A stretch of DNA of 44,493 bases from Guillardia theta CCMP2712 (Eukaryota > Protista > Cryptophyta): positions 8,137 through 52,629 of the forward strand of contig NW_005434415.1 of assembly GCF_000315625.1 (NCBI RefSeq), given 5' to 3'. This document shows, piece after piece, positions 4,755 through 43,099 of this stretch. Every line of letters begins with the position of its first letter. The first letter of the stretch is position 1. Under the pieces are notes generated by a model that ran no database searches, had not been told where the DNA came from, and was given only the letters and a program-made list of their open reading frames with translations. The position numbers and the translations under genes were made by a program.

Positions 4755-7392
<2,638 letters not shown>

Positions 7393-15100: not shown

Positions 15101-15506
15101 TGTGAAAGCGTGAATATTAGATCTTTTGGAAGTCTCTTTGAGATACTTCGATTTCTAGTGCGTTCGTTTTCATTTGCAGAACAAGGATGAAAATTGTTGG
15201 TTCGACTATGATAATCAGGCATCAGAAGGCTTGGAAATTTCATTGGCGGAAGAACTCTCATGCATCAGGGTCGATGACTGACATACAAGTACAAGTAGTA
15301 GTAGTCTTTGGTTTTCTCTGCCCACTGATGACAGTTAAATCCACGGACGAACAGAAAATTTGAAATACTGATATCTGCAACAATCTTGTGCGCTTCCGAC
15401 CTATTTGTCGTGATGTTGTTGGTAGCCATCGATAAAAATCTCCTGACATAACTTGACATACTATTGTTTCCTTCTCGCTTAATTTGTTGATGACAATGCT
15501 TGGCAG

Positions 15507-17313
15507 ATGCAAAGACTTTGCAAGAGCCTTGTTACCAGGGCTCCATCAGTCACCAAGGCTGTTGTAGGAGCCCAGGCTTCCTCCTTCCACTCCTCTGCCT
15601 CGCTCTCCCTCAAGCTCCAGCCGGAGGCCAACGTTGAGGTAACTGCTCGCTACCTCTCCTGTCCTGCCAGTGTTGTTTGTGCACCTTGAAGGGATGTGTC
15701 GAGAATGGAATGTTGTTAACGGACCACTTGCAGGGCAAGCGCATCAAGTACTTCCAGATCTACCGCTGGGATCCTGATCAGAGCAGGTCGGATCTGTGTA
15801 GGGTCTTGCTGCTGGTTGACTTGGTGGAGCAGCCGCCCCACCATGGCGACGTACCCGATCAATCTGTCGGAGTGTGGTCCCATGGTGCTCAGTGTGCCCT
15901 TGCCGCCATGGCGCTAAGTTTCGCACAGGTTCTGGATGCTCTTCTCAAGATCAAGAACGAGCAGGACTCTACCTTGACCTTCCGTAGATCTTGCCGCGAG
16001 GTGAAGCGAGCATGACCAAGTCTTGGAGCTGACGGGTAGCCATAGGGGATCTGCGGCTCCTGTGCGATGAACATTGATGGATCCAACACTCTTGCGTAAG
16101 AGTTACAAGGGACATGAGGGGGAGAGTTTGAACCCATGGGCGCAGCTGCCTTGCACGAATCGACACCTCCTCCTCCAAAACGAAGATCTATCCTCTCCCT
16201 CACATGTATCTTTCACCTGGCGAGCAGCAGGCGGCATGCAGCTGACGTTGTCTTCAGGTATGTCGTCAAGGACCTGGTCCCCGACATGACCAACTTCTAC
16301 GCTCAAGTAAGAGCGTCGAGATCCCCGGAGGATGGTCGACCGCTGATGAGGTTGGCAGTACAAGACCATCGAGCCCTGGCTTCAGAAGGAGGGCAACGTG
16401 AGCGATCTTTTGGTTACACGTGGAGCCTGAAGTATTTGCAGGAAGGAAAGATCAAGGACGACAATGGCAACTTCAAGGTCGAGGAGAACGTTGGTAGATG
16501 CCCAAGGTCTCAACACCGTTCGCTTGCAGGAGAACTACATGAGCAAGAAGGACCGCGATGTGCTTGATGGAATGTGAGCTCGACTCTTCCCCCCTCTTCC
16601 TTCCCCTTCTTATTCATCAAAGCAGCTCCTCCTTATCCCCCCCTTCCCATACTCACCCGCCCCCCCCCTCCCCCCCCCCCCACCCTTATTACCTTCCTTT
16701 CTTTCATCCCCGTCCCCCGCTTCCTCTCGTCACGTTCGCTGGCAGGTATGAGTGCATCCTGTGCGCTTGCTGCAGCACTTCCTGCCCTTCCTACTGGTGG
16801 AACTCCGAGAAGTACCTCGGCCCGGCTGTTCTCATGCAGGTCAGGAGCATGTCCATGTCAGTTGAGGACATAATGGATCTTGTCAGGCCTACCGTTGGAT
16901 CTGCGACTCTCGTGATCAGAACACCAAGAAGCGCATGGAGATGCTTGACGATACGTGAGCAACAACCCTCCTCGTCTCTTTTCCTTTCTCCCTCCCCTCC
17001 CTCTCCCTCCCCTTCCGACCTTCCTCATTCCCTCCTCTCTTCCCATTCGCTCAGCTTTTTGAGTTCCCCAATGTCTTCCCTGCTCCTCCTCTTTCCGTCC
17101 CGATTCTCAGCGCACTTCTCTCGCCTCCTGCACTTCTCAATCGGCACAGGTACAAGCTCTACCGTTGCCACACCATCATGAACTGCACCAAGACTTGTCC
17201 CAAGAGTCTCAACCCTGGGCTCGCCATCGCCAGGCTCAAGAGGGTACGGGAACAGGCGCGATTCTGTTTGAAAGTCTCTGACCTGCTACTGCCAGAAACT
17301 TGTGACTGGATGA
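15507..17313 (+). CDS. SDH2: Succinate dehydrogenase iron-sulfur subunit, mitochondrial
   Basis: Ser/Ala/Arg-rich transit-like N-terminus, then [66 protein letters not shown] and [20 protein letters not shown]. Last exon KLVTG*. Many GT-AG introns. Confidence 0.97.
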
Positions 17314-17432
17314 AGTTTCTAGCGTTGGAGATATCAGATGTAAACGTAGGACGAACTGAAGTCGTCGGAGCAGTAAATTTACAAATAACAAATAATTAAG
17401 ATGGTGTAGCTAGTGTATTAGGTTCCAGCAAG

Positions 17433-17981: not shown

Positions 17982-19076
17982 GACTCCTGCAAAGGTTTCG
18001 TGTGAGTGAAGATGAACAAAGTGGAAGATTTGCAAGCGTAGTGACATTTCAGTTGCAGAAGAAAAAGTGTAATGGACAGATGGTGATCGAGGGAGAGATC
18101 AGTGCGGGCAAGAAAGAAATTTTTGTAATGTACGTAAAATGACAGAAGTAGAGTAGTCAGAGTGGTATAGCAGTGATACAAGGATGGAAGAGAAAGGAGA
18201 GACATAAATGCGAGGAAAGAAGGCTATAGCCAGGATGCCGAGAAAAGAAGCATGAATGCGCGGAGATGGGAACGAGCAGGGAATGAGTCGACGTGTGATG
18301 AGTGAAGGTCAACCTTCAAAAAGGAAAACAAGGCAAAGAGCATGAATGATAGATGGCAGAAAAACTTGGCGGAAAGCACACGATTCAGATAGACAGGCAC
18401 ATGAGTGGGTGAAATGAGAATAGGAGAAAGATGGGGTTATATGTAGAACATCTAGGGGACAAAGTAAAGCAGGGATGGGAGGAGCAAGGGAGGGAGGGAG
18501 GGAGGGAGGGAAGAAAGTCAGAGTGGGAAGGAGGGAGAGGAGGAGGAGGGAGGGAGGGAGGGCGAGGAAAGCCAGAGGGAGACCAGGGTGGGTGGTCGGA
18601 TGGATGGGATGGGAGGGGAGGACGAGGATAGTGCCGGCAGGCGGGAGAGTTGGAGGGGCAGGAGGGCGGGAGGGGGAGGTTTCGAAAATCAAAAACTCAA
18701 TAATTATTTAAACTCAATAAGTAAATTAATATATAGGTTCAATCATAAGACTAAAATAGCAGTAATTGGTACAAAGATTTTCATATCTGTACCAACATGG
18801 TAGAAAAGATATCTGTACATAACCTTGGTTTAAAATATTTAAATTAATTTATTTTGAAAATAAATAGTTTTTTTCATAGCTGAGACGCCGAACTTGATAC
18901 ATATTTCTGTATATGTATTTTATGAAAAACGTTTTAAGTTTGGTACGTGAAAACCCTGACTTCGGGGCCTCTATCGGGGAACAAGCGGAGGATGGGAGAG
19001 TGTGGTAGAGGTCAGTCCGACTAAGATCAGGACAGGAACACGACAGGAAAGGACATGACAGGGACAGAACAGAGAC

Positions 19077-19465: not shown

Positions 19466-22400
19466 ATGACCCAACACGCTGAGCTGGTCCTTCCCCTCCA
19501 CTGTTCAGTCAAGCTGCTCAGGACCTCGTGGCTGGCGACCAGCTCAGTGGTGGCAGCGTTCTACTTCGAGCAGTATGACTGTGCTGCATCATGGTCATGC
19601 ATGCAAGCCAACTGAGCTTATGCACCAGGTGCTGTCCTAGCGCTCGCAGTCCTCCTCACCTCCATCAACTACTGGCGACGACCGACGTTCGGATACCGCA
19701 GGAGGCAATATCCTTCCTACACTTGCATCCCCTCCCATCTCCCCCCCCCCGCCCTCGCCCTCCTCCTTTCCAAACCTCCAATAGAGAAGTTGTCACCATT
19801 TGAACAACACTTGGCTCCATGCTCCCTGGGTACATAACCCACGTCATAACCATGTCATGGTGGTCTCAGCTTCTACCTTCTTGTTTCCTCCTTTCCTCCC
19901 TTCTGCTCTCCCTCTCTCCCCCTCAGCTTTCCCGGCCATAGTTTGTGCTCCATTGATGTTGTGGAACAGAATCGACATGGTCTGCACAATCTTCAGCTTG
20001 TCATATCAGTTATTGTAAGCTCAGATTTGATCCGCTCCCTCCGTCTCTCACTCTCCCGCTCCCTCCTATCCCTCCATCCCCAGTTTCTCCTCCCTTCCCC
20101 TCTCCTTCTCCCGCCTGTCTCCCCATCTCCCATCTCTCCTCCCTCCCTCCCTCCTCTTGTTCCTCTTTCCTTTGAACTCATAACCCTCATGCTAGTTTTC
20201 GGTCGCCCGAATTGCTTCCATCTCACCGCAGCTTCTTCATTCCCTACCTCGCGTCCCTCTTGCTCGGCGTTTTCTGCTACCTCAAGGCGAGAAGGTGAGA
20301 ATAAGTCAGGTCCATCGTCCCTCACCTCACAGACGTTTGTTCTTCCCACCTCTGTCCTGACTGTCCATTTTCCCTTCCTCTCCATATGAACTTAGCCGTC
20401 CTCCTCCTCCACTCCATCCGGACCACCCACAGCTATTCCCCCCCTCGCCAGCCCCAACCTCCTCTGCCAATGAACTTTTTGGATATATCAATCCTATGAC
20501 GAGCACTATTGCCAACAATGATATAGATGAAACAACAGGATACTTACTTTTTACTTATGGAGGTTCATTAAAAGTGCTTTGAAGGACATAGCTATTAGCT
20601 AGGCTTAATAATCCACCGGTAACATTGAAATCGCTTGATACTGAGCTTATAAAATTTGATGGAACAGATATGATATCAAGCTGACCGCTAGCATTGACCG
20701 ATAAATTATTTGTATTAACTGATTTGATAAACTGGTCTGAGCTTGTAAATGGTGTAAATGATAAAGCTAATTGATTACCTGTAACAGTAAAAGAAGAATT
20801 GACAGATTGGATAAATTGATTTGCTGATGTAAATGGTGTAAATGATAAAGCTAATTGATTGCCTGTAACAGTAAAGGAGGAATTAACCGATTGTATATAT
20901 TGACTTGATGATATTAAAGGTGTGAAGCTTAGACTTAATTGATTGCCTGTAACGCTAAAGTAAGATGAATTGACCGATTGTATATATTGACTTGATGATG
21001 TAAAGGGTGTAAATGATAAAGCTAATTGATTGCCTGTGACAGTAAAAGATGAATTGACCGACTGGATAAATTGATTCGCTGATGTAAAGGGTGTGAATGA
21101 TAAAGCTAATTGATTGCCTGTAACAGTAAAGGAGGAATTGACAGATTGGATAAATTGATTTGCTGATGTAAATGGTGCGGATGCTAATTCTAAATATCCA
21201 AGTGTAACCGTGAAGTCAGCACTTGCAGAGCTTATAAAAGGTAATTCTTGAATCTTGCTAAAAATTAGCTCTCCATTTGTAACGGTAAAGTCTCCACTTC
21301 TTACACTCCTTATGAATTGACTTCCACTTGTTAAATAATCATTAGCTGTTAGATAGGATTGAACATCTGTGTCAGAGTATCCAGCGGGTATATCAATATT
21401 TTGAATGAATGTATATAAAACATTTGATTCATCCTTAATCTGATTAAATAATATGTTGCTTTCTGTAAGTGTATGAGCATATAAAACATTTGATTCATCC
21501 TTCAAATCTGTTAATGTAATATAATTATTAGCCGTTAAATAGGCCTGTGTGTCTGTGTCATCATATCCAGCAGGGATGACAATGTTATCAATCTTATTAT
21601 CGATTTGCGCGTTGGTGTAAGGCTTTGCGAAACTCTGAACTGTTAATGTTCCTTGCCCTGAATATCCTATTATATCTTTTGCTTCTGATTGTGATAAGGT
21701 CTTGTTGTATATCCTCAAATCTTGAAGATATCCGATAAATTCCCCAATCCGTATATTTTGAGTTGTATTTATTAAGCTCGTTGTTGTCCCTGTCAGTGTC
21801 TGAGCTATTCCATCAATATATAAATAAGCAGTTGTTCCATTATTTACAAAGCAATAATGCTTGAAGCTTGTTGATGTGGCATATCCATTTGTTAGCGTTG
21901 ATATGTTGGTCTCATTGTTAAATGTAAATTGTAGATTGTTGCCATTCCTTTTAATGTAAATGAAATTATCAATTGTTGAAAATATAAAATCATCGGCTGG
22001 GTTTGATTTTAAAGCTGTTATCTTTAGAAAGAAGCTTATTGTTAATCCTGTTTGAGCTGATGATATTAAAGGCAACTGTGCCGATGTCTCGCGTCTTCTG
22101 TCTGGTGTATCATCTATGCTTTGAAGAGAATAATAAAGCTTATAATATTCAGAGTTTGAAAATGTGAAATCATTAAAGTCATATGTGCGATTATATTTTA
22201 TTATCACAACTCCAGACCCTCCAGCTCCTCCGGCTATTGACCCATTACTACTGTATGACCCGCCACCTCCTCCACCTGTTCCGCTTTGTCCTGCCTGAGC
22301 TGTGCCACTATTGAGAGTTGTGCCGCTCGCATTTCCTCCGCCTCCAAGACCTCCATTGTTGCTGCTATTTCCTCCACCACCTCCACCACCATAATATGCT

Positions 22401-25400
22401 AGCGTTCCTGTTATATCAACTTGACGACCATTTCCACCTTGTCCATTTGAAGCATTTGCTCCAGCACCACCCCCAGCACCTCCTCGATTGCTGCCACCAC
22501 TTACATAAAAACCAACTCCATTATTACCGCCTGCAACATATGTTGAACCATTCCAAAAAGTATTTCCTTGAGTAGCTGTTCCGCCTGATGTGCTATTAAA
22601 AGCAGCACCTCCACCAGAGCCTCCAGACCCACCACTTGAGCCATTGGAACCACCGCCGCCAAATCCTCCTCCTTTACCTACTAAACTTAAAGAATCAAAA
22701 GAAAGAGTGGAGTTATTTATATCTGTTATTTTACTGTCATAACCATTTCTATTCGCTGCTCCTCCATTTCCTACATAAATATAATAGGTACCAGCTGATA
22801 TTGTCTTATTGACCATATACAGCACACCACCAGCACCGCCACCGCCTGACTCATATCCAGCTCCTCCAGTTGCTGCGGTTCCACCACCACCACCGCCACC
22901 AACTATAAGAATGTCACATATCAAATCCATCTTAAATTCAACATTATATGTCGTTTGATTTCCTGAAATATGAACAAATTCAACATAATAATCAGATGTT
23001 GAGCCAGAAATTAAATATGAATTCGTTGAAGGTATAGTTATTGGGTCTGGTAAAAAGTAACCTTGTGGTGTAGTGTCTAGATGATAGGTAAAAATACTAT
23101 CATTAAAATTATTATTGAATTTATACCAAGCTATAAGGTCTGTTGTGTTTCCTGTATATGATAATGTAGGTGTCAATTTGCTTGTGCCTGCGGCCGAGTA
23201 CTGAAATTTATAAAGCTCAGGAGTGATCAAGACATTATCATATTGTTTATCTTCAAATATCAGAGATATAGATTTATTGAATAATGTCAATTGTAAAGCT
23301 GAATTGGTTGTATTATATGTATTGTTTGTGTATTCATCAAATAGATAAACATTATTGTTATCATCTACTAAGAACTGCGCAGGGTCAAAGTTATATGTTG
23401 TTCCTCCTGTGCTTGGCAATATAACGTTTTGAGTTGAAACGCTTGAATCGCCAAATCTCACAAGCTCATTATTTTGACTGTCTAATAAAACAATCTCAGG
23501 GCAGTTTGTGCCGGCTGGTCCTTGAGCTCCTGTTGCGCCTTGGGGTCCTGTTGCGCCTTGTGGTCCTGTTGCTCCTTGGGGTCCTTGTGGTCCTGTTGCT
23601 CCTGCTGGTATATTTATACTTGTTGAAGAAACATTCGCATCTCCGATTTGACCTAACAATGTTGAGCCATCAGAATTATAAAATTTTAGCTGTCCAGCAT
23701 TGACCCCAGCACTATATAGATTTATTGATTGAGTTGAAACATTAGGGTCTCCAATTTTACCTAACAAAGTTGTGCCATTAGAATTAAAAAATTTGAGCTC
23801 TCCAGCATTTATTCCATTTGTTCCACTGTCTCCTTTAGGTCCTGCCGCTGGTAAATTTATAGATGCTGATGAAACATTAGCATCTCCTATTTTCCCTAAC
23901 AATTCTGTACCATCAACATTATAGAATTTTAATTCTCCTGCGTTTGTTCCTCTTGGAACATTTATAGAAGCTGTAGAAACATTAGAATCACCTATTTTAG
24001 CAAGTTCAATGGTTCCATCATAGTTTTTGAAAATTATTTGACCCGCATTTTTTCCATTTGTTCCATTAGTTCCATTAGTTCCACTGTCTCCTTTATCTCC
24101 CTTTGGTCCTTGACTTCCAGTGCTTCCAGTATCTCCTTTATCCCCTTTATCACCTTTGATACCATCGGGTAGTGTTATATCTTGACTATTATAATTATTT
24201 AAAGTTATTGTCACATTTCCTGTTCTTGTATTCTTAAAATTTAGCTGAAATGTTTCAATTGTAGAAATATATCTTTGTTGTGCTTCATCATAATATATTT
24301 TAAATATTCCCTGTCTATCTGCTGAATCAAACAAATCTTTAATGTCTGTCTTAGCCGGCTCATTGTTGATGGTTAAGCTTCGTCTTATATTGTTATTTGT
24401 TGAAAGGCTTTGTTGTGTGCTCACTGTTTGATTATTTACAGTAATAAAAGAACCACCATATAAAATATTATCACATATCAAATGGTCTAAGTGAAGCCCT
24501 CCAGTTATCTTAGTTTTTACATTGTCAACATCACCATTATATAATTTAGAAACATCATCATCAGACCATACACCATTTGTAGCATTCATTACAATATTAC
24601 ATATCCCCCTATTAGCTGAATATCTCCCATCTTTTAGGATATAGTTTCTAATGTTATAATTATAAATGACAATTGGATGTAATTGATACCAATTCGCAGT
24701 CGGTGGCGTGATATCCATAGCCACCAAAACACCATTCAGATACACCTTAAATATATCTTTGGATATGCTGAAAGCGTAATGATTCCAATCGTAAAACAAT
24801 GTTTTATCATTCGAAAAATTATTGTTAATGATAACAGACCTCAAATTCTCAACCCTTTGTTGTAAATTATTAATATATACAATCTTGACCCGCAGCCCCA
24901 AAAATTTATCAGGCAAGGAATCATCATCTGAAATAATCCAGTAAAATTCAGTCCCATCATAAAAACCATCGTTGCCATTCTTATTTTCATATTTGATTTG
25001 AAAAAGCCTATATTCTTGTGTTCCGTTGTTTCTTGCCTCGTTCGTGTTGTCAAATCTCCACCAAAAAGAAAGGTTTATGTACTGAGAAAATAAAAGGTCA
25101 TTGACTATTAAATTTTTATTGCTTTGAAAGTTTAGCCTATAAGTTGATATGTTAAGTTTAAATGTATCTTCTATTGTGCCGTTAAATTCAATGTTGTTGT
25201 AAGATGTGCCCAATAAATTATTTATTGATAAACTAGTAGGCCCAATAAAAACATCTCCTTTTACTGGTGATAATGAAAGGGGATATGTTATGTTTAAATT
25301 ATTGTTGTTCAAAGCTAACTTATCCGAGAACGTTAAAGAATTATTGACAGTTAAATTATTTGTATTCACTGAGTTTTTTATTTCATTGTTGATAACATTA

Positions 25401-28274
25401 TATAATATATTAGACTCTGAATATATGCGATTGTTTAATAGGTTTGAATCAGTTTTTAAATGATTGTATAATATATTTGATTCATTAAGTATATGCTCAT
25501 ATAATATACTGTTTGAACTGTTGATAAAGTTTGTGTAGGTATCCGTTTTGAGAAAATTAGAGCTATTGAGATAACTTGTATAGACATCAGTTTTAAGAAA
25601 GTTAGAGCTTGCCAGATTTTGATATGATAGAAATGTATCTAATCCTTGCTGTTTTGTGTAGAAATCAGTTGATAATTCCCATTCTTGATTGTCATTGAAA
25701 TAAAGATTGCCTATGAATCCCGGATTGATGTCGTTTATAAGTGTGCTTGCTGTATGTTTTGTTCTTATATGATTGTATAATACATTTGATTCTTCATATA
25801 TTTTGTCATATAGTATATTAGACTCTTCATATATATAATCATATAATATGTTAGATGTATTTTTAATGGATATATCTGTCTCATATTTGTTATAGACATT
25901 AGGTATGATAACATCATCAATAAAAAAAGTTTTTCCTTTAAATACAATCTTGTATTCTTTAAGGTTTTCATTATTAATCCCAAAAATATATTCATCCAAT
26001 TCTTGTTGTGTCAATTCATTGCCTAATGTTATTACTTCTTCACCTTGAAAAAGAATATTTCTTTCGTCTAAAACGGTTTGTTCTTGTCCATCAATGACAA
26101 GAGTTTTATAAGTGTCGTCATATATAAATGCCTGATTAGGGACTAAATCAAGCTTTTGACCATCTGTAAGATTCCTAGAATATATTTTAATAACTCTACC
26201 TTGTAATTTAGTATTTATAACCTCATCTTCAAGAACCGATATAACAACACCCAATGATAATCGTAAAATATTAATCCACGAGAGAATAAACAGGCCATCA
26301 GCTTTTGAGGTGTTTGTTCCTGACGCTATCAATCCCCCAATGAAGCCCGTTCCAATTGCAAGACCTCCCTTAACAATTTCACCCAAGCCATTGAATAAAT
26401 TAAAACCATTTTCAGCCGTATCGTCCAAATCTTCTAAGGATTGGGCAGCATTTGCGGTTTCTTGCGCGGCAGCATTGTTGTTTAAATCATCTAATTGTTG
26501 TTTAATCTGTTGAATTGTAATAAATGAACCATTTTCAAGTGTGAATTTAATGATATATTTATTAGGGTTAGTCTGATATTTGACATATAATATATTTCTA
26601 TCATTGTTTGTAATTACAGTTTCATTAGTGTCTGGTTTAAATTTTATAAGTGTCTGTAAATCAAGAACATCATTTGATGTATTAAATAAGATATCGTTTG
26701 TTTCTATCAAGTAATTACTAGTTTCTATTAGCAAATCATTAGTTTCAATCAAGTTATTGCTAGTTTCAATGGTTTTAATTTCAAGAGCGTTTGTTTGTTG
26801 AAATAGGAGTGTGACCTCATCATTGAGCACATTTACATTCCCATATAAAACAGTAATATCAGCATTAATGGCATCTAATTCAGGCTGCAATGTGGTTTGA
26901 TTGTTATTGCCTATGTATTGATATGGTTGATGATTATTATTATTACATGCCATGTCTATTTTATTAATTAAAATATTAAAATATTAGTTTGACAGGGTTA
27001 TGTATTATCAATATTCCAGAAGTTTGTTTTAAAGCTCTAGCGGTTTCTTTATGCGTTTTAAGGTATTCTATATCATCTTGATTAATAAGATTAGCATTTA
27101 AGAGCGTGGATAATGCTTTATCATCGCGTAGTATTTTAAGAAGAATGTCTTGTATAAAGTTAATATAATCACGTTTATATTTTCTGTATTGTTTCATATA
27201 GATATCTTTATTCATTTTGATTTTTGGAGAGAAAAAGAATAATAGAAAAGATAGGCTGGTAGAGGGGGGGGTAAAGTAGACCCCCCTTTTTGAAAAGTAG
27301 TTTACGTTGGAGGTTAGTAACGTAAAAAAAAGAGGTAACGCATAGCAGACCTGGAAGCTACCCCCGGAACCCCCCCTCTACTTTTGGGGGGCCTCTACCG
27401 GGCCTTATTTATACTACTCGCGACCCTATTGGTTAAGTGCTGCCCTTTTGGAATTGTTTTTATTAGTGCGTACGGGCCCGCCTAGGCAGGTCAGAGGTCA
27501 TTGTTTTTTTTTTGAGTCGGTGGGAATCGTGGGAATCGAACCGGGGACTGTATGGGCTAGGAAAAAGGATATGACGACTAGGCCAGGATGCCTTAATACC
27601 TTGAAGGGTATAGTTATATATATAGGGGTGTCGGTTGGGTGCTCCGGGACCACTGTGCAGACGGCAGAACGGCAGAAGGGAAGAACGGCCATTGGTCACC
27701 AAGGGGGGAGCAAGCTCCCGCGGCAAGGCTGCGCCATGCCTTTCCGCCCCCTTGCTGAAATCATGTGAAAGCCTGACGAGAATGATAAGGGAAAGTGATA
27801 GAGATAAGAAGGCAGTTGTTCATAGTTGAGTCACGAAGGAAAAGTGTAATACTCAAAAAAGGTCAAATAATCATAGAAGGCAGACGAGAATGATAAGGGA
27901 AGATGAGAGAGATACCGTCAGGGCAGTTGTTCATAGTTTGTTCACGAAGGAAAAGTGTAATACGTCAAAAAAGTCACGAAGGAAAAGTGTGATACTCAAA
28001 AAGGTCAAATAAGTCAAATGGTATTAAGCTGCTAGCGGCTCCTGCCCTCCTCCCTGTCCACCTCTTCTTCTCCTATTTTGTTTTTTCTCTTCCTCTCCCT
28101 TCCTCTCTTCCTAGCTGGGGTCATCATATATCTCCGGTCTGAACTCGTCACAGAGCTGGGAGAGTTCGTCGGCAGCCCGAGCGAGCAGCGGTGTGGCATG
28201 GGAGGCTGCACGTGATGGGCAACATCAGCAACTTGTTCTTGTACTGGGGGCTCGGGCAGAGAAGCCGCGAGTGA
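19466..28274 (+). CDS. Small multi-pass membrane protein (CREST-superfamily-like motifs); 5 exons, last intron 20295-28153 holds the virus-like element
   Basis: Spliced product MTQHAELVLPLHCSVKLLRTSWLATSSVVAAFYFEQYDCAVLALAVLLTSINYWRRPTFGYRRRIDMVCTIFSLSYQLFFFIPYLASLLLGVFCYLKARR|AGRVRRQPERAAVWHGRLHVMGNISNLFLYWGLGQRSRE*. The phase-2 junction AG|gtgag...cacag|A is in frame. Intron 2 appears to use a GC donor. Confidence 0.8.
20555..26953 (-). CDS. 2132-aa modular viral fibre/adhesin-like protein (coiled coil, ESNILY repeats, two LamG/ConA-like domains, collagen GXY, glycine-rich domain, 28-aa C-terminal repeats)
   Basis: Uninterrupted 6.4-kb ORF. Motifs: LSFWWRF...WNHYAFS...VYLNG; GDKGDKGD and GATGPQ; [13 protein letters not shown]...GGSGVVIIKY; LIAWYKFNNNFND...HYCFV...LYIDG...LQDLRIYNKTLS. 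Confidence 0.9.
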   Translation of the reverse strand: MACNNNNHQPYQYIGNNNQTTLQPELDAINADITVLYGNVNVLNDEVTLLFQQTNALEIKTIETSNNLIETNDLLIETSNYLIETNDILFNTSNDVLDLQTLIKFKPDTNETVITNNDRNILYVKYQTNPNKYIIKFTLENGSFITIQQIKQQLDDLNNNAAAQETANAAQSLEDLDDTAENGFNLFNGLGEIVKGGLAIGTGFIGGLIASGTNTSKADGLFILSWINILRLSLGVVISVLEDEVINTKLQGRVIKIYSRNLTDGQKLDLVPNQAFIYDDTYKTLVIDGQEQTVLDERNILFQGEEVITLGNELTQQELDEYIFGINNENLKEYKIVFKGKTFFIDDVIIPNVYNKYETDISIKNTSNILYDYIYEESNILYDKIYEESNVLYNHIRTKHTASTLINDINPGFIGNLYFNDNQEWELSTDFYTKQQGLDTFLSYQNLASSNFLKTDVYTSYLNSSNFLKTDTYTNFINSSNSILYEHILNESNILYNHLKTDSNLLNNRIYSESNILYNVINNEIKNSVNTNNLTVNNSLTFSDKLALNNNNLNITYPLSLSPVKGDVFIGPTSLSINNLLGTSYNNIEFNGTIEDTFKLNISTYRLNFQSNKNLIVNDLLFSQYINLSFWWRFDNTNEARNNGTQEYRLFQIKYENKNGNDGFYDGTEFYWIISDDDSLPDKFLGLRVKIVYINNLQQRVENLRSVIINNNFSNDKTLFYDWNHYAFSISKDIFKVYLNGVLVAMDITPPTANWYQLHPIVIYNYNIRNYILKDGRYSANRGICNIVMNATNGVWSDDDVSKLYNGDVDNVKTKITGGLHLDHLICDNILYGGSFITVNNQTVSTQQSLSTNNNIRRSLTINNEPAKTDIKDLFDSADRQGIFKIYYDEAQQRYISTIETFQLNFKNTRTGNVTITLNNYNSQDITLPDGIKGDKGDKGDTGSTGSQGPKGDKGDSGTNGTNGTNGKNAGQIIFKNYDGTIELAKIGDSNVSTASINVPRGTNAGELKFYNVDGTELLGKIGDANVSSASINLPAAGPKGDSGTNGINAGELKFFNSNGTTLLGKIGDPNVSTQSINLYSAGVNAGQLKFYNSDGSTLLGQIGDANVSSTSINIPAGATGPQGPQGATGPQGATGPQGATGAQGPAGTNCPEIVLLDSQNNELVRFGDSSVSTQNVILPSTGGTTYNFDPAQFLVDDNNNVYLFDEYTNNTYNTTNSALQLTLFNKSISLIFEDKQYDNVLITPELYKFQYSAAGTSKLTPTLSYTGNTTDLIAWYKFNNNFNDSIFTYHLDTTPQGYFLPDPITIPSTNSYLISGSTSDYYVEFVHISGNQTTYNVEFKMDLICDILIVGGGGGGGTAATGGAGYESGGGGAGGVLYMVNKTISAGTYYIYVGNGGAANRNGYDSKITDINNSTLSFDSLSLVGKGGGFGGGGSNGSSGGSGGSGGGAAFNSTSGGTATQGNTFWNGSTYVAGGNNGVGFYVSGGSNRGGAGGGAGANASNGQGGNGRQVDITGTLAYYGGGGGGGNSSNNGGLGGGGNASGTTLNSGTAQAGQSGTGGGGGGSYSSNGSIAGGAGGSGVVIIKYNRTYDFNDFTFSNSEYYKLYYSLQSIDDTPDRRRETSAQLPLISSAQTGLTISFFLKITALKSNPADDFIFSTIDNFIYIKRNGNNLQFTFNNETNISTLTNGYATSTSFKHYCFVNNGTTAYLYIDGIAQTLTGTTTSLINTTQNIRIGEFIGYLQDLRIYNKTLSQSEAKDIIGYSGQGTLTVQSFAKPYTNAQIDNKIDNIVIPAGYDDTDTQAYLTANNYITLTDLKDESNVLYAHTLTESNILFNQIKDESNVLYTFIQNIDIPAGYSDTDVQSYLTANDYLTSGSQFIRSVRSGDFTVTNGELIFSKIQELPFISSASADFTVTLGYLELASAPFTSANQFIQSVNSSFTVTGNQLALSFTPFTSANQFIQSVNSSFTVTGNQLALSFTPFTSSSQYIQSVNSSYFSVTGNQLSLSFTPLISSSQYIQSVNSSFTVTGNQLALSFTPFTSANQFIQSVNSSFTVTGNQLALSFTPFTSSDQFIKSVNTNNLSVNASGQLDIISVPSNFISSVSSDFNVTGGLLSLANSYVLQSTFNEPP
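20747..21170 (-). repeat. Coding 84-bp (28-aa) tandem repeat, 5 well-conserved copies plus degenerate flanks
   Basis: Unit FTSANQFIQSVNSSFTVTGNQLALSFTP; one copy has an extra Tyr. Confidence 0.92.
26976..27215 (-). CDS. 79-aa basic virus-like hypothetical protein
   Basis: AT-rich, intronless ORF with an A-rich ATG context (AAAAATCAAAATG). Its stop lies 22 nt upstream of the large ORF on the same strand, as in compact viral genomes. Confidence 0.7.
   Translation of the reverse strand: MNKDIYMKQYRKYKRDYINFIQDILLKILRDDKALSTLLNANLINQDDIEYLKTHKETARALKQTSGILIIHNPVKLIF
27775..28016. repeat. Tandem repeat array at the element end: ~108-bp unit x2, with TCACGAAGGAAAAGTGT(A/G)ATAC x3
   Basis: GACGAGAATGATAAGGGAA at 27775 and 27883; sub-repeat at 27831, 27942 and 27974. 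Confidence 0.9.
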
Positions 28275-38925: not shown

Positions 38926-39745
38926 TTGTGAAAGGTCACAAGCTCGCCCGTCCCTCGACGTTTACATAGCATCCCTTCACACCCAGCAAGGCATGGTGGG
39001 TGCACGCGTTGGGCATCAAAGCGCCTTGCTGCCTAATCGGAGAGTCGCAGAGCAGTCTCTCAGCTATTACGTAATACCTCCTCTCTCCTCCTCCCTGAAA
39101 TTCTCCTGTGTCAACCTGTCTTTCATCATATCTTCCTACCCCGATCCTATTACAATCACATCAATCTTTCTCCTGACCTACATCTCTTCTCCTATACTCT
39201 TTCACTCCCTCCCTCCCTCCCTCCCTCCCTCCCTTGCCCTGCTCGTCTCCTCGCTCAACTCCAGCCATGCCTGTACTAGAGTTTTTACTTTGCCGATTTC
39301 CGGGACCGCTGAATTTTCTAGCTGGGTGGCTGGACTCCCGATGTAAACGAAGGGGGTAAGAAGTGCGGGGATGAGGGGTCACCTTTTGGGCAGGTCCGTG
39401 CTCCTGGCATGCACATGGGGAGGTCACGTTACTCTGACTGGCATCCGAGGTTTTACTCCTTGACTCTTTACCACACAGGCGGTAGAAATTTTGCGAAATG
39501 CTGTACTTTCATATGGCTGTTGGCCGATTTTCCCTGCGAAACGTTGAGATTTTGCCGCCTCCCCACAGCCCCCGACCTCACGGACCAACTTGAATTGCTC
39601 TCCCCATCCCTCTTTAAACTTCCTGACTAGGCTCGAGCGCACAACCTCGCTCCCGCCGCACACGCTTACCACTCATCCCCCGTCCTTCTACTCCTCCCTC
39701 CCTCCTCCTCGTTGCCTTCCTCCTATACCTCCTCCTCCTTCCTCC

Positions 39746-40219
39746 ATGTCCGACCCCCGTCCTGTCGCTCGCATCACTCCCCGCCGTAACCGCCTCCAGA
39801 TGACCTCCTCCCACTCCAAGAAAGCCTCCATCGCACTCTCCTACGACAGCATCGCCGCGCTCTTCCCCCTCCGTCAGGTCGACGCCGCCAAGACCCTGGT
39901 GAGTCCCATGCGCGACCCTCCGCGAGGATGAGGACAAGGCTGACTGGACGTGCTGCAGGGGGTCTCGCTCACGGCACTCAAGAAGGCCTGTAAGCAGGTC
40001 GGGATCGCGGGCTGGCCCTACTCGAGGCAGCACCAGGGCCGCAGCAGCGCCAACCAGCCGTCAAGCGAGCAGCCGAGCGAGGAGGACGGGGAGGGCGGGG
40101 AGGGCGGGGAGGGCGGGGAGGACAGGAGGGAGGGTCAGATGTACATGGCGAGGGGGCTTTTTGAGGAGGCGCTCGAGCATGTAGAGGGGAGAACAGCTGT
40201 GCGTAGGAGAGGGGGGTAG
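39746..40219 (+). CDS. RWP-RK domain transcription factor, copy 1 (intron 39899-39958)
   Basis: LSYDSIAALFPLRQVDAAKTL|GVSLTALKKACKQVGIAGWPYSR matches the RWP-RK consensus (..F.LP..EAA..LGVS.T.LKR.CR..GI.RWP.R). Confidence 0.9.
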
Positions 40220-41884
40220 AGGGGGTCGTCATGGCGTGTGAGGCCCAAGACAAATGGACTGAGAAAGAAGAAGGAACAGAAGCAGAGGCAGAATGGATGA
40301 AATTCTGCAACTAGATCGTCGCTCGTTGATGTGTCATGTAACTGATTGAAAATGAAATGAATGAATTATATGACTAAAAATGGTTGTCTACATGCACTCG
40401 AGTCATTCACCGGTAAGTTTTGGGGCATCAATTATCCGATTAGTCGACAATCATCTGCGCTGAACGTCGCTCCGAAGTTCCTTGCTGCAAATAAGCTCTT
40501 CTTGAGCCAAAAACAATGAAACCGGGTTACGGTCGGGCTTGCCCGGACTTGGGTCAGCGGAGACCAAATCAACGGTTCAAGCTCAGTGCAGTGGCCGGCA
40601 GTGGAGACAGAGGGCGGCTCCTGCCGAACTTGTCACAGTGACGGTGACCATAGCGCATGTGTTTGAACTTCGGAATCAGCCCACTGTTATTGTCGGATCC
40701 AGGAGGTTATGCTGTAACTGAGTGCGGTATGGGAGTTCTAATGCTACAGCGAATACATCAGCAATCACTGACTGTACCACTGTGACTGAGGACTGGAGTG
40801 GGTCGACGGTCTTTTAGTAATGGAACCGCCCTAAAACTTGAAACGGTTTTTTATACCGTGCTGACGCACCGTGTCATATGACGCCGCATATCAAAATGGT
40901 ATGGGATGTTCAATATGTTACAGTCATGTACCGGGTGCTGCACACCGTCGGACACGTAAGGCTACACTACTGACCGGGTATCCGAGTCATGGCTTCAATA
41001 CCGTCAAACTTTGGTCCCGCGGCTAAACTTGAAAGACCGTCACAGGCTTGCCACCGTCCGCACGGAACCACAGGCTTGCCAGTGACACACGGTGCGGCTG
41101 CCAACTGAATGGAAGTTCAACTCAGTGCGACACCGTCACGGCCTTCCCGTCAGACCGTCGCCGCGCCGCGATGATTGTCAGCATGTCATAGTCAAGCCCA
41201 GGCCGCGGTATCACCCGGTGACCGTCCGATCGGTGCTGCCGGCCCCGGTCGGGCCCCGGCGGCGGCCCGGGCCTGCCACCGTGCCATCCGATCTGCGGAC
41301 TCCGTTCCGGAACTTGTGACTTGGCCTGCAGTGCCGCTGTGCGGCGACGGGCAGTGCTAACCGGGCCACGACTGACAGTTCCGGCGAGTCCCGAAGTGCA
41401 ACGCCGCGGCCGCGGCGGGTTCGCACTAACTGTTCGGTCTTCAGGCTTCGGTACGCCGGATCAGTGACGCCCGGGCCGCTCAGGCACTCGCCCGGCCGGG
41501 GCCCGCAGTGCGTCACTAGTCCAGTCCGAGCCTCCCTCAGTCCCGGCTCGGAGTCACTTTTATTGAGTAAAAGTTGTCTGCCTGTCATTTAAAAAGGGCG
41601 GGGGTACCGTGACTAGGGTTAACACCTCCTTGTGGTAAATTTCATCCCCCACGGCATTTCTACCCGACTTTTACGCCTCCCCCCCCAACACACGCTATAC
41701 CTTGCTGCTCCTTGCTGAAGATACCCTCTCAATCCATCTCGATCTTCCGCTCCCTGTTGCATCCATCTCCTGCCACACCGTCTACTGCCCTACTGCCCTC
41801 AGCCTTCTTCGGTGCTCCTCTTCGGACACAGCCTCCTTCCCTCCTCCTCTGTGCCTTCCTCCTATACCTCCTCCTCCTTCCTCC

Positions 41885-42341
41885 ATGTCCGACCCCCGTC
41901 CTGTCGCTCGCATCACTCCCCGCCGTAACCGCCTCCAGATGACCTCCTCCCACTCCAAGAAAGCCTCCATCGCACTCTCCTACGACAGCATCGCCGCGCT
42001 CTTCCCCCTCCGTCAGGTCGACGCCGCCAAGACCCTGGTGAGTCCCATGCGCGACCCTCTGCGAAGATGAGGACAAGGCTGACGGGGACGTGCTGCAGGG
42101 GGTCTCGCTCACGGCGCTCAAGAAGGCCTGTAAGCAGGTCGGGATCGCGGGCTGGCCCTACTCGAGGCAGCACCAGGGCCGCAGCAGCGCCAACCAGCCG
42201 TCAAGCGAGCAGCCGAGCGAGGAGGACGAGGAGGGCGGGGAGGACAGGAGGGAGGGTCAGATGTACATGGCGAGGGGGCTTTTTGAGGAGGCGCTCGAGC
42301 ATGTAGAGGGGAGAACAGCTGTGCGTAGGAGAGGGGGGTAG
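41885..42341 (+). CDS. RWP-RK domain transcription factor, copy 2 (intron 42038-42098)
   Basis: Near-identical to copy 1; 6 aa shorter in the EGG repeat. Confidence 0.9.
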
Positions 42342-43099
42342 AGGGGGTGGTGCGAATGGTACGGTAGGTGAGGGGGAGGAGGATGAAGTTCGGGAGTAGC
42401 GAGATCCTACTGGAATGATTGACGTTAACGTTGATACCTTGAGGTGGTTCGAGTGTATGACGAGTAAACTTATGCTATAGTGCTCCTGACAGTCTTGATG
42501 AAACCTTGAACTTAACCGCACTGTTCAATGCTAGTCCTTCAATCTGACTCATTGAAGGACTGATCATCATCAAGGCATGCCATTAGTACCGTACGGCCAA
42601 CAAGGATCAGGCTGCGAGCTCGGACCGTTTACAAGCCGCCGGGCGCTGCCGGGGCACGGCCCCATCACGGCCCGCCGGACTCCGGGACTCAGCCCGGACT
42701 GGCGGCGCGGCGGACTGCCGCTGCTTACTAAGTTAACGGGCACCCGCGTCACCCGTACTACCGTACACTTGCCAGTGCCGCCGCAGTCACGGCGCCGGGC
42801 CGGGGCGGAGGCACCACCGGTCCGAACTTCCGAGAAGTTCCCAAAACGCAATGACGGTCTGGAACTTCGGAAGCCGGGCGGCCCGGCCCTCAGCCTGCCG
42901 CTGACTCGCCCGGAGGCCGCTCAGCTGAGGTCGGCCCGGCGCCCGGCCGGTCCCGGAACTGCCGCGCCTAGCCTACGGTAGTCAGTGCCAGTGCCATCGG
43001 CAGTTCGAAAGTTCCCGGGCCGGCCGCCGGGCCGGGCGACGGGGATCCAGGGAGACTTGAATCGATTAGAATCAAATTTGGCACGTGCGGGAGACGGCA

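Follow-up and report, generated by a model that had tools for sequence, protein, structure and literature searches.

A viral insert in an intron of Guillardia theta that probably acts as a splicing trap

We found that a gene of the cryptophyte Guillardia theta carries a viral insert between its exons 4 and 5, and that this insert is probably an endogenous Polinton-like virus (PLV) broken down to its terminal third, which acts as a gene trap in one RNA assembly. We infer the PLV membership; the insert contains no capsid gene. The element is most likely a young, truncated PLV relic. An endogenous viral insertion is a known kind of element, and the interesting part here is the gene-trap splicing: protists harbour abundant endogenous PLVs and virophages, which are known to insert into genes, but what they do to host transcripts has mostly been predicted from annotation. 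Three features of this locus stand out: the gene-trap splice at an inversion scar, a nearly identical relative from a river in which one fibre segment diverges, and foreign exons joined at the right end. Our full-text literature searches, with most subscription papers outside their coverage, returned no protist report of splicing into PLV-like elements, which is weak evidence of novelty; publications joining Polinton and exonization concerned, by their titles and the starts of their abstracts, only animal or general transposon topics.

The DNA analysed (the window; 44,493 nt of contig NW_005434415.1 of strain CCMP2712) is contained in part in 20 public runs, four of which were aligned to it: X1 (DNA), X13 (labelled RNA, the label being a database guess), X5 (a river metagenome) and X21 (raw reads, treated as RNA). 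None of the 20 runs is recorded as RNA in its database entry. X1 possibly is, and possibly is not, the source of the assembly. The host gene has the following exons.

19466–19580, plus strand: exon 1, coding part (joint 19580/19629; family profile positions 19–61, E 1e-5)
19629–19704, plus strand: exon 2, followed by a GC-AG intron (profile positions 59–82, E 6e-9)
19970–20014, plus strand: exon 3 (X13 joints; weak colinear profile match, E 1.7)
20196–20294, plus strand: exon 4, with donor GTGAG at 20295 (X13 contig; weak colinear profile match, E 11)
28154–28274, plus strand: exon 5, the native last exon, with an HxxxH motif (profile positions 132–157, E 3e-4)

The profile came from a motif scan of IMG/VR, which yielded 47 loci and, from these, 42 distinct intronless homologues in giant viruses; it was applied to the window as 1731 six-frame segments. 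The top three matches were exon 2 (whose score is partly circular, as it contains the motif used to collect the family), exon 1 and the exon at 28154, while exons 3 and 4 matched weakly and in order. Since exons 1, 2 and 5 are matched in order by the family profile, exon 5 is the native last exon. One histidine of exon 5, lying outside the search motif, is invariant in all 27 aligned homologues, and a second is conserved in at least 90% of them (31 homologues passed the length filter, of which four near-duplicates were excluded). Exons 1–5 join in frame to encode 151 amino acids, and the other introns of the gene measure 48, 265 and 181 nt. No significant Pfam or PDB sequence match was found for the family. 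The exon 4/exon 5 gene model of the original prediction is thus correct at the DNA level, and the GTGAG donor at 20295 and the CACAG acceptor ending at 28153 are both in place, 7859 nt apart.

Between these two sites lie an AT-rich insert of about 7.57 kb (approximately 20469–28036) and the remnants of the host intron on either side of it. The GC content of the insert is 0.348 vs 0.538 in the remainder of the window, in agreement with the AT-rich intronic insert described originally.

20295–20468, plus strand: 174 nt of host intron to the left of the insert, rich in pyrimidines; GC content 0.62 over the 94 nt on the junction side; spanned by an X1 contig without differences
20469–20562, plus strand here: inverted 94-nt piece of the fibre gene, with a 7-nt inverted duplication at its bounds and an opposite-strand joint in X1
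20555–26953, minus strand: fibre-like ORF, 2132 codons, ATG at 26953, stop at 20555–20557; 3′-truncated by the inversion
26976–27215, minus strand: small ORF of 79 codons, lying upstream of the fibre ORF; matches no family
27216–28036, no strand assigned: non-coding end of the insert, about 820 nt, with internal direct repeats; right boundary approximate
28037–28153, plus strand: about 117 nt of host intron to the right of the insert, carrying a pyrimidine tract and the CACAG acceptor

The left junction is spanned by an X1 DNA contig (19200–20549) without a single difference, and the right junction by an X13 contig (27673–28181). At the right junction the single-copy DNA contig of X1 begins at 28007, so that only about 30 letters lie on the element side; given the 30-nt overlap of neighbouring contigs, the first locus-specific base would be near 28037. 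The insert within the host gene is real, and contamination was rejected as an explanation because contigs cross both junctions.

To see what the host gene transcribes, we turn to X13. Its record 9 is a contig covering 19381–20691 at a depth of 18.5, with five intron-like joints (19580/19629, 19702/19968, 20014/20196, 20292/20561 and 20617/20667), which after allowed shifts correspond to four GT..AG introns and one GC..AG intron. The contig begins at about 19381, upstream of coding exon 1, with 12 nt not found in the window. The fourth joint, with 57 letters on its short side, leads from the exon-4 donor (20294) to 20563 within the insert, 268 nt away, and defines, together with the fifth, two cryptic exons.

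20563–20618, plus strand: cryptic exon 1, viral DNA antisense to the fibre gene (GT..AG joint 20292/20561, cut shifted by +2, depth 18.5)
20668–20691, plus strand: cryptic exon 2, 3′ untranslated (GT..AG joint 20617/20667, cut shifted by +1, 25 letters on the short side; the contig ends here)

The first cryptic exon adds 13 codons, with a stop at 20600–20602, giving a predicted product of 124 amino acids without exon 5. The pyrimidine tract and AG of its acceptor are provided by the flipped piece at 20469–20562. The original prediction had the whole 7859 nt removed as one intron, an insertion tolerated by splicing and a host gene apparently intact. The X13 contigs speak against all of this: a single spliced contig (in one run) leaves exon 4 and continues at 20563 with no branching, its message stopping 13 codons into viral DNA, and the junction 20294^28154 occurs in none of the six X13 records, though contigs drop rare isoforms. 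The antisense ORF, whose expression had likewise been proposed as informative, has no X13 contig on its body (depth 0 in 20 of 20 bins, 20785–27124), meaning that assembled RNA is missing and not that silence is proven. From run X21, 51 reads in total could be placed, almost none on host exons, too few to test splicing. The host gene is thus probably damaged rather than intact. The truncated 124-residue product would lack the invariant C-terminal histidine, and loss of function is predicted because the exon that carries this residue is replaced.

The coding content of the insert is viral in character and incomplete. As originally described, an unbroken frame of 6.4 kb runs antisense to the host gene: the minus strand is free of stops over 20555–26983, whereas the longest open frame in 200 base shuffles of the long-ORF region reached 191 amino acids. 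The third-position GC content of the fibre ORF is 0.23. Its protein (P0001) matches Pfam Gly_rich_2 (PF21722, E 2e-16) at residues 1345–1597 and Laminin_G_3 (PF13385, E 7e-14) at residues 1634–1767, and also 20 PHROG families, 9 of them annotated as tail, mostly through collagen-like repeats. Five repeats of 28 amino acids stand at its cut end; a single-sequence structure model of these terminal repeats (mean pLDDT 68) had no match at E ≤ 0.001 in PDB or BFVD, and an adenovirus-like shaft was dropped as a candidate, since the predicted fold matched nothing significant. Only two ORFs of viral character are present, neither resembling a capsid family. Among the insert's ORFs there is no gene for a double jelly-roll major capsid protein, for an integrase (rve or tyrosine recombinase) or for replication (pPolB, S3H/primase), and no ORF in 20469–28036 corresponds to a minor capsid (penton) protein or an A32-like packaging ATPase, which bears out the original remark that no capsid, pPolB, ATPase or integrase gene was recognisable. 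What the insert does share with PLV fragments is the shift in GC, intronless viral ORFs and a large modular fibre with LamG and collagen parts, such a fibre being typical and not diagnostic.

The non-coding end (27216–28036) is built of direct-repeat units of about 108–111 nt and of 32 nt, shows multicopy depth in X1 and has no Rfam match. It is likely to be one terminal repeat of the virus. We could not find a second terminus: no inverted match longer than 9 nt connects the two end zones of the insert, and no terminal inverted repeat is among the 25 longest inverted pairs listed. In the search for a target-site duplication, the junction zones shared only pyrimidine-rich, low-complexity matches of at most 8 nt. 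Such a duplication is not expected from tyrosine-recombinase elements or at a truncated end.

The left end of the insert is a scar. In X1, positions 20469 and 20570 are joined across opposite strands, at a depth of 84.5 and with 42 letters on the short side; 7 letters at this joint fit either side, 20469–20475 being the reverse complement of 20563–20569. Within the insert, only 42 of 6254 places have a 7-mer with an inverted partner 80–120 nt away. When the fibre gene is continued into 20469–20562 in the sense orientation, the frame is kept and 31 further codons are free of stops, and the coordinates of the joint fit only other copies that run from the fibre gene straight into this piece in sense. 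The opposite-strand joint and the open sense frame therefore show that the last 94 nt have been flipped at this locus. The stop of the fibre gene, which follows two prolines, was created by the flip, and the host intron adjoins immediately. What speaks against this reading is that the flipped piece resembles the rest of the fibre protein no more than by chance (170 of 300 shuffles score as high) and has no protein match in a word-index search. The cryptic acceptor coincides with the inversion junction. An origin by retrotransposition of a viral mRNA was dismissed: there is no poly(A) tail, and both truncation and inversion are on the 3′ side of the gene.

The element is, then, most likely a truncation scar and not a satellite cassette. 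The original prediction had left both options open, a truncated terminal piece or a satellite; the former is supported and the latter is not, given the cut at the inversion, the single end and the copies that continue. Neither a whole fibre ORF nor a maintained fibre gene is supported, as the end of the ORF was created by a local inversion and other genomic copies read on past the break. An antiviral, receptor-interfering role of a maintained fibre is not supported.

Several observations place the insert in a small family. Long X1 contigs on the insert have 1.5–4.7 times the depth of flank contigs (depth not being copy number), the value declining along the fibre gene from about 4.7 to 1.5 times that of the flanks, which are themselves similar to each other and single-copy (49.4 and 44.3). 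The X1 contigs over the insert often carry letters that differ from the window. This suggests a few diverged copies of the element in the genome. A close relative is present in river metagenome run X5, where coverage extends to 24 of 30 bins but to no host-only bin; six of its pieces, over 23631–27847, have 16 differences in 4323 nt (99.6% identity). One X5 contig aligns to 21387–22175 at 94.9% and to 23100–23353 at 89.8%, with about 930 nt between them unaligned, so that the Gly-rich segment of the fibre appears, from the sequence, to be swapped or strongly diverged in the river relative. The river sequence may be a free virus or a copy integrated in a host of low abundance. The near-identical environmental relative and the multicopy depth uphold the original view of a recent virus-derived insertion with a fibre-like gene.

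More distant relatives were few. A HMMER search with the N-terminal 818 amino acids of the fibre gave eight matches, six of them metagenome fragments; the two named homologues are G. theta GUITHDRAFT_147322 (30% identity, E 2e-5) and a transcript of Hanusia phi. Both come from cryptophytes, a group whose PLVs encode fibres of this sort, which makes a cryptophyte host likely, as would the style of the introns. In the Atlas, the fibre N-terminus retrieved only clusters scoring under 0.8, and word-index protein searches returned nothing for the N-terminal half of the fibre or for exon 5. No relative with linked core genes was found in IMG/VR (scanned with both halves of the fibre, the small ORF, P0011 and two motifs), in prokaryote genomes and phage records, or in JGI metagenomes, the last of which yielded one contig of 2133 nt (L049) with a related fibre start beside repeat-rich non-coding DNA. 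The sole IMG/VR match (L001), a weak LamG hit in a giant-virus metagenome-assembled genome (E 3e-4), was rejected as a generic domain match.

The sequence of events that we favour is as follows. A member of a small multicopy virus family, probably a PLV, would have integrated into intron 4, where the insertion is observed. The sequence beyond the fibre gene would then have been lost, probably through template switching or microhomology-mediated repair, the repair leaving the flipped 94-nt piece (the inversion itself being evident in the joint) and the 7-nt duplication; capture of an already broken viral molecule would leave the same picture. The spliceosome would now prefer the AG of the flipped piece, 268 nt from the donor, over the native acceptor 7.9 kb away, as the junction of one run indicates, and the host protein would be 124 rather than 151 amino acids long, its invariant C-terminal histidine gone. 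The element itself is predicted to be immobile, because it has only one end and no capsid, packaging, replication or integration gene.

The right end of the insert holds the main risk to this gene-trap model, namely foreign sequence which the model leaves unexplained. In X13, 31 letters from outside the window are joined at the CAG at 27673–27675 in a contig that continues over the right junction into exon 5, and at least 255 letters from outside are joined at 28152, in a contig whose depth, by bin arithmetic, would be about 205 if the overlap is 30 nt; neither foreign piece was found in the window. They may represent another gene moved upstream by recombination between copies, a nested unassembled element or a mis-join. 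It is possible, though we consider it unlikely, that the two flanks do not lie in cis in every cell or strain, through ectopic recombination or mis-joining, and that exon 5 is fed by another gene. The foreign pieces are what one would expect of such an arrangement, no single record among the aligned runs spans the locus as a whole, and short-read assemblies of multicopy viral inserts are described as unreliable (PMC10120064, as far as its available text goes). However, exon 5 is the true partner of exons 1–4, so that the assembly joins ancestrally correct flanks, and the flank depths in X1 are similar (49.4 and 44.3); the foreign exons could also be supplied by an unassembled nested transposon or another promoter, and the join at 28152 can equally be read as a minus-strand donor. 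A sequence joined at or next to the acceptor 28153 also counts in favour of the view that the entire 7859 nt is spliced out after all, the full-length protein being made and the cryptic isoform a side product. The five exons are present and in frame for 151 amino acids, the donor and the acceptor are intact, and minor isoforms are dropped by contigs, yet the single exon-4 contig runs unbranched to 20563, none of the six X13 records has 20294^28154, and the other introns of the gene are just 48, 265 and 181 nt; we regard complete splicing as quite improbable.

The identity of the element invites two further readings. An open frame of 6.4 kb in a multicopy family could belong to a non-autonomous satellite, consisting of a terminus and a fibre gene and using the proteins of a helper, or to a fibre kept by the host for receptor interference. 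The fall of depth from about 4.7 to 1.5 times that of the flanks means that other partial or divergent copies may exist, and a short endogenous virophage without morphogenesis genes is known (EMALE type 8, from the accessible part of PMC8547959). We nevertheless hold this to be very unlikely: the insert has a single end, no inverted partner and no target-site duplication that we could find, the gene is cut by the inversion where other copies continue, no X13 contig lies on the body of the ORF, and at the young age suggested by the 99.6% identity to the environmental relative an open frame would be expected in any case. That the insert derives not from a PLV but from a virophage or a giant virus (Nucleocytoviricota) is somewhat less remote, though still improbable. 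LamG, collagen and Gly-rich fibres occur in giant viruses too, the weak LamG hit at E 3e-4 that is the only IMG/VR match comes from one, and PLV core genes are neither in the insert nor linked to the fibre in the relatives retrieved. The repeat-bearing terminus beside a large fibre gene, and several near-identical copies, point instead to a small integrating virus, and cryptophyte assemblies contained PLVs but no virophages and no giant-virus sequence according to the part of PMC12220804 available to us.

A broken PLV fits best with what is described in the accessible portions of the cryptophyte literature. Bulzu et al. 2025 (PMC12220804) report over a thousand cryptophyte PLVs, which average 22 kb in Rhodomonas lacustris, have a low GC content and terminal inverted repeats, and whose fibres carry LamG and collagen repeats; by column count in their Table S6, PF13385 and a tyrosine recombinase are present in all three tabulated G. 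theta elements, and integration by the PLV tyrosine recombinase is said to yield no target-site duplication. Yutin et al. 2015 (PMC4642659) described three integrated G. theta elements, GUITHDRAFT_147322 not being named in the supplement. Like the elements of these two papers, the insert has low GC, intronless ORFs, a modular Laminin_G_3/collagen fibre, several copies per genome and close environmental relatives; a target-site duplication would not be expected where a tyrosine recombinase integrates. In contrast to them, so far as those texts describe them, it is 7.6 kb long instead of about 22 kb, has a single end, contains no capsid, penton, ATPase, helicase or recombinase gene and no C-terminal S74 chaperone domain (the gene being cut before its end), bears an inversion scar, and is used as a host exon. 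Its 7.57 kb and lone terminus fall short of a complete PLV, for which terminal inverted repeats at both ends and 14–40 kb are expected.

Other systems offer partial parallels, again as far as the consulted parts of the sources go. The EMALEs of Cafeteria burkhardae (Hackl et al. 2021, PMC8547959) are also AT-rich viral DNA inside host genes, with 15 sites in predicted genes, two of them intronic, and with one truncated type that has no morphogenesis genes. Unlike the insert, they are virophages that carry core genes, a terminal repeat at each end and target-site duplications; where copies are partial, this is ascribed to assembly breaks at contig ends, whereas the insert has host DNA on both sides, and splicing into the element is not described in the text available. 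Partial, decaying viral genomes are reported in a Halocafeteria preprint (10.64898/2026.07.28.741278), and Bellas et al. 2023 (PMC10120064) note that short-read assemblies garble such viral inserts. Gezel-14T/PgVV-14T of Phaeocystis globosa (bioRxiv 10.1101/2022.07.28.501842) has as its longest ORF a fibre rich in repeats, which is present in virions, and the terminal repeats are, as here, built of repeated units; this is, unlike the insert, a complete isolated virus, and the likeness noted is one of description. A parallel in effect is the exonisation of intronic transposons (L1, Alu), in which, from the sources at hand, a cryptic acceptor and an early stop truncate the host message, but here the trap is a fragment of a DNA virus, the protist concerned has very short introns, and the acceptor lies at an inversion junction.

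The locus is a concrete case in which an intronic viral relic rewires splicing and probably knocks out its host gene, and it cautions that exons joining in frame on either side of a large viral insert should not be taken as a sign of tolerance. It also links a river virus of near-identical sequence to what is probably a cryptophyte host, with a fibre gene in which one segment appears to have been swapped. A more far-reaching reading, which we think highly improbable, is a double defence by accident, built from the broken copy of a virus that would still be circulating in rivers: the host promoter would make RNA antisense to the fibre, the same event would truncate a membrane-protein gene shared with giant viruses, and recombination between copies would shuffle host exons. 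If true, PLV relics would be both gene traps and sources of antisense RNA in algal genomes with compact introns.

The gene that hosts the insert (19466-28274) is an intron-bearing member of a family of small membrane proteins. This family has no Pfam model, and its invariant residues are an Asp and a His. It is common in giant-virus contigs, with 47 IMG/VR loci (L002-L048) recovered with one motif in a scan of viral contigs only. Intron 2 of the host gene (19705-19969) is best read as GC-AG. Upstream of a (CAGGG)n array lies a second, short AT-rich island (18680-18950, 24% GC), in which we found no convincing ORF; it may serve as a promoter region, or it may be an older relic.

Elsewhere in the window, two stretches gave domain matches:

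6468-7124, minus strand: enolase N-terminal match
15500-17320: gene with many introns, matching Fer2_3 and Fer4_17

The latter gene likely encodes the succinate dehydrogenase iron-sulfur subunit. The window also carries a direct duplication of ~530 nt (39693-40229 and 41832-42351; 94.8% identity).

At the non-coding, repeat-bearing end of the insert, contigs of the DNA run X1 departed from the window sequence at 27242, 27631 and 27990, and the terminal regions therefore differ in other copies. One variant had a different 35-nt stretch at 27233-27244. RNA-type contigs joined out-of-window sequence at 27673-27676 and at 28152-28154. Within the non-coding end, a contig from X13, a run labelled RNA by database guess, mapped to 27345-27500, and the bin 27442-27758 took most of the raw reads of the RNA run X21 (51 reads in all). 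This coverage of 27345-27760 may represent a transcript from the terminal region, either of this copy or of another.

In the fibre ORF, the contig of the near-identical river relative (metagenome run X5) matched on either side of the Gly-rich stretch 22176-23099 and nowhere inside it, and this pattern of sequence matches suggests that the stretch is a fibre module that has been swapped or is evolving fast.
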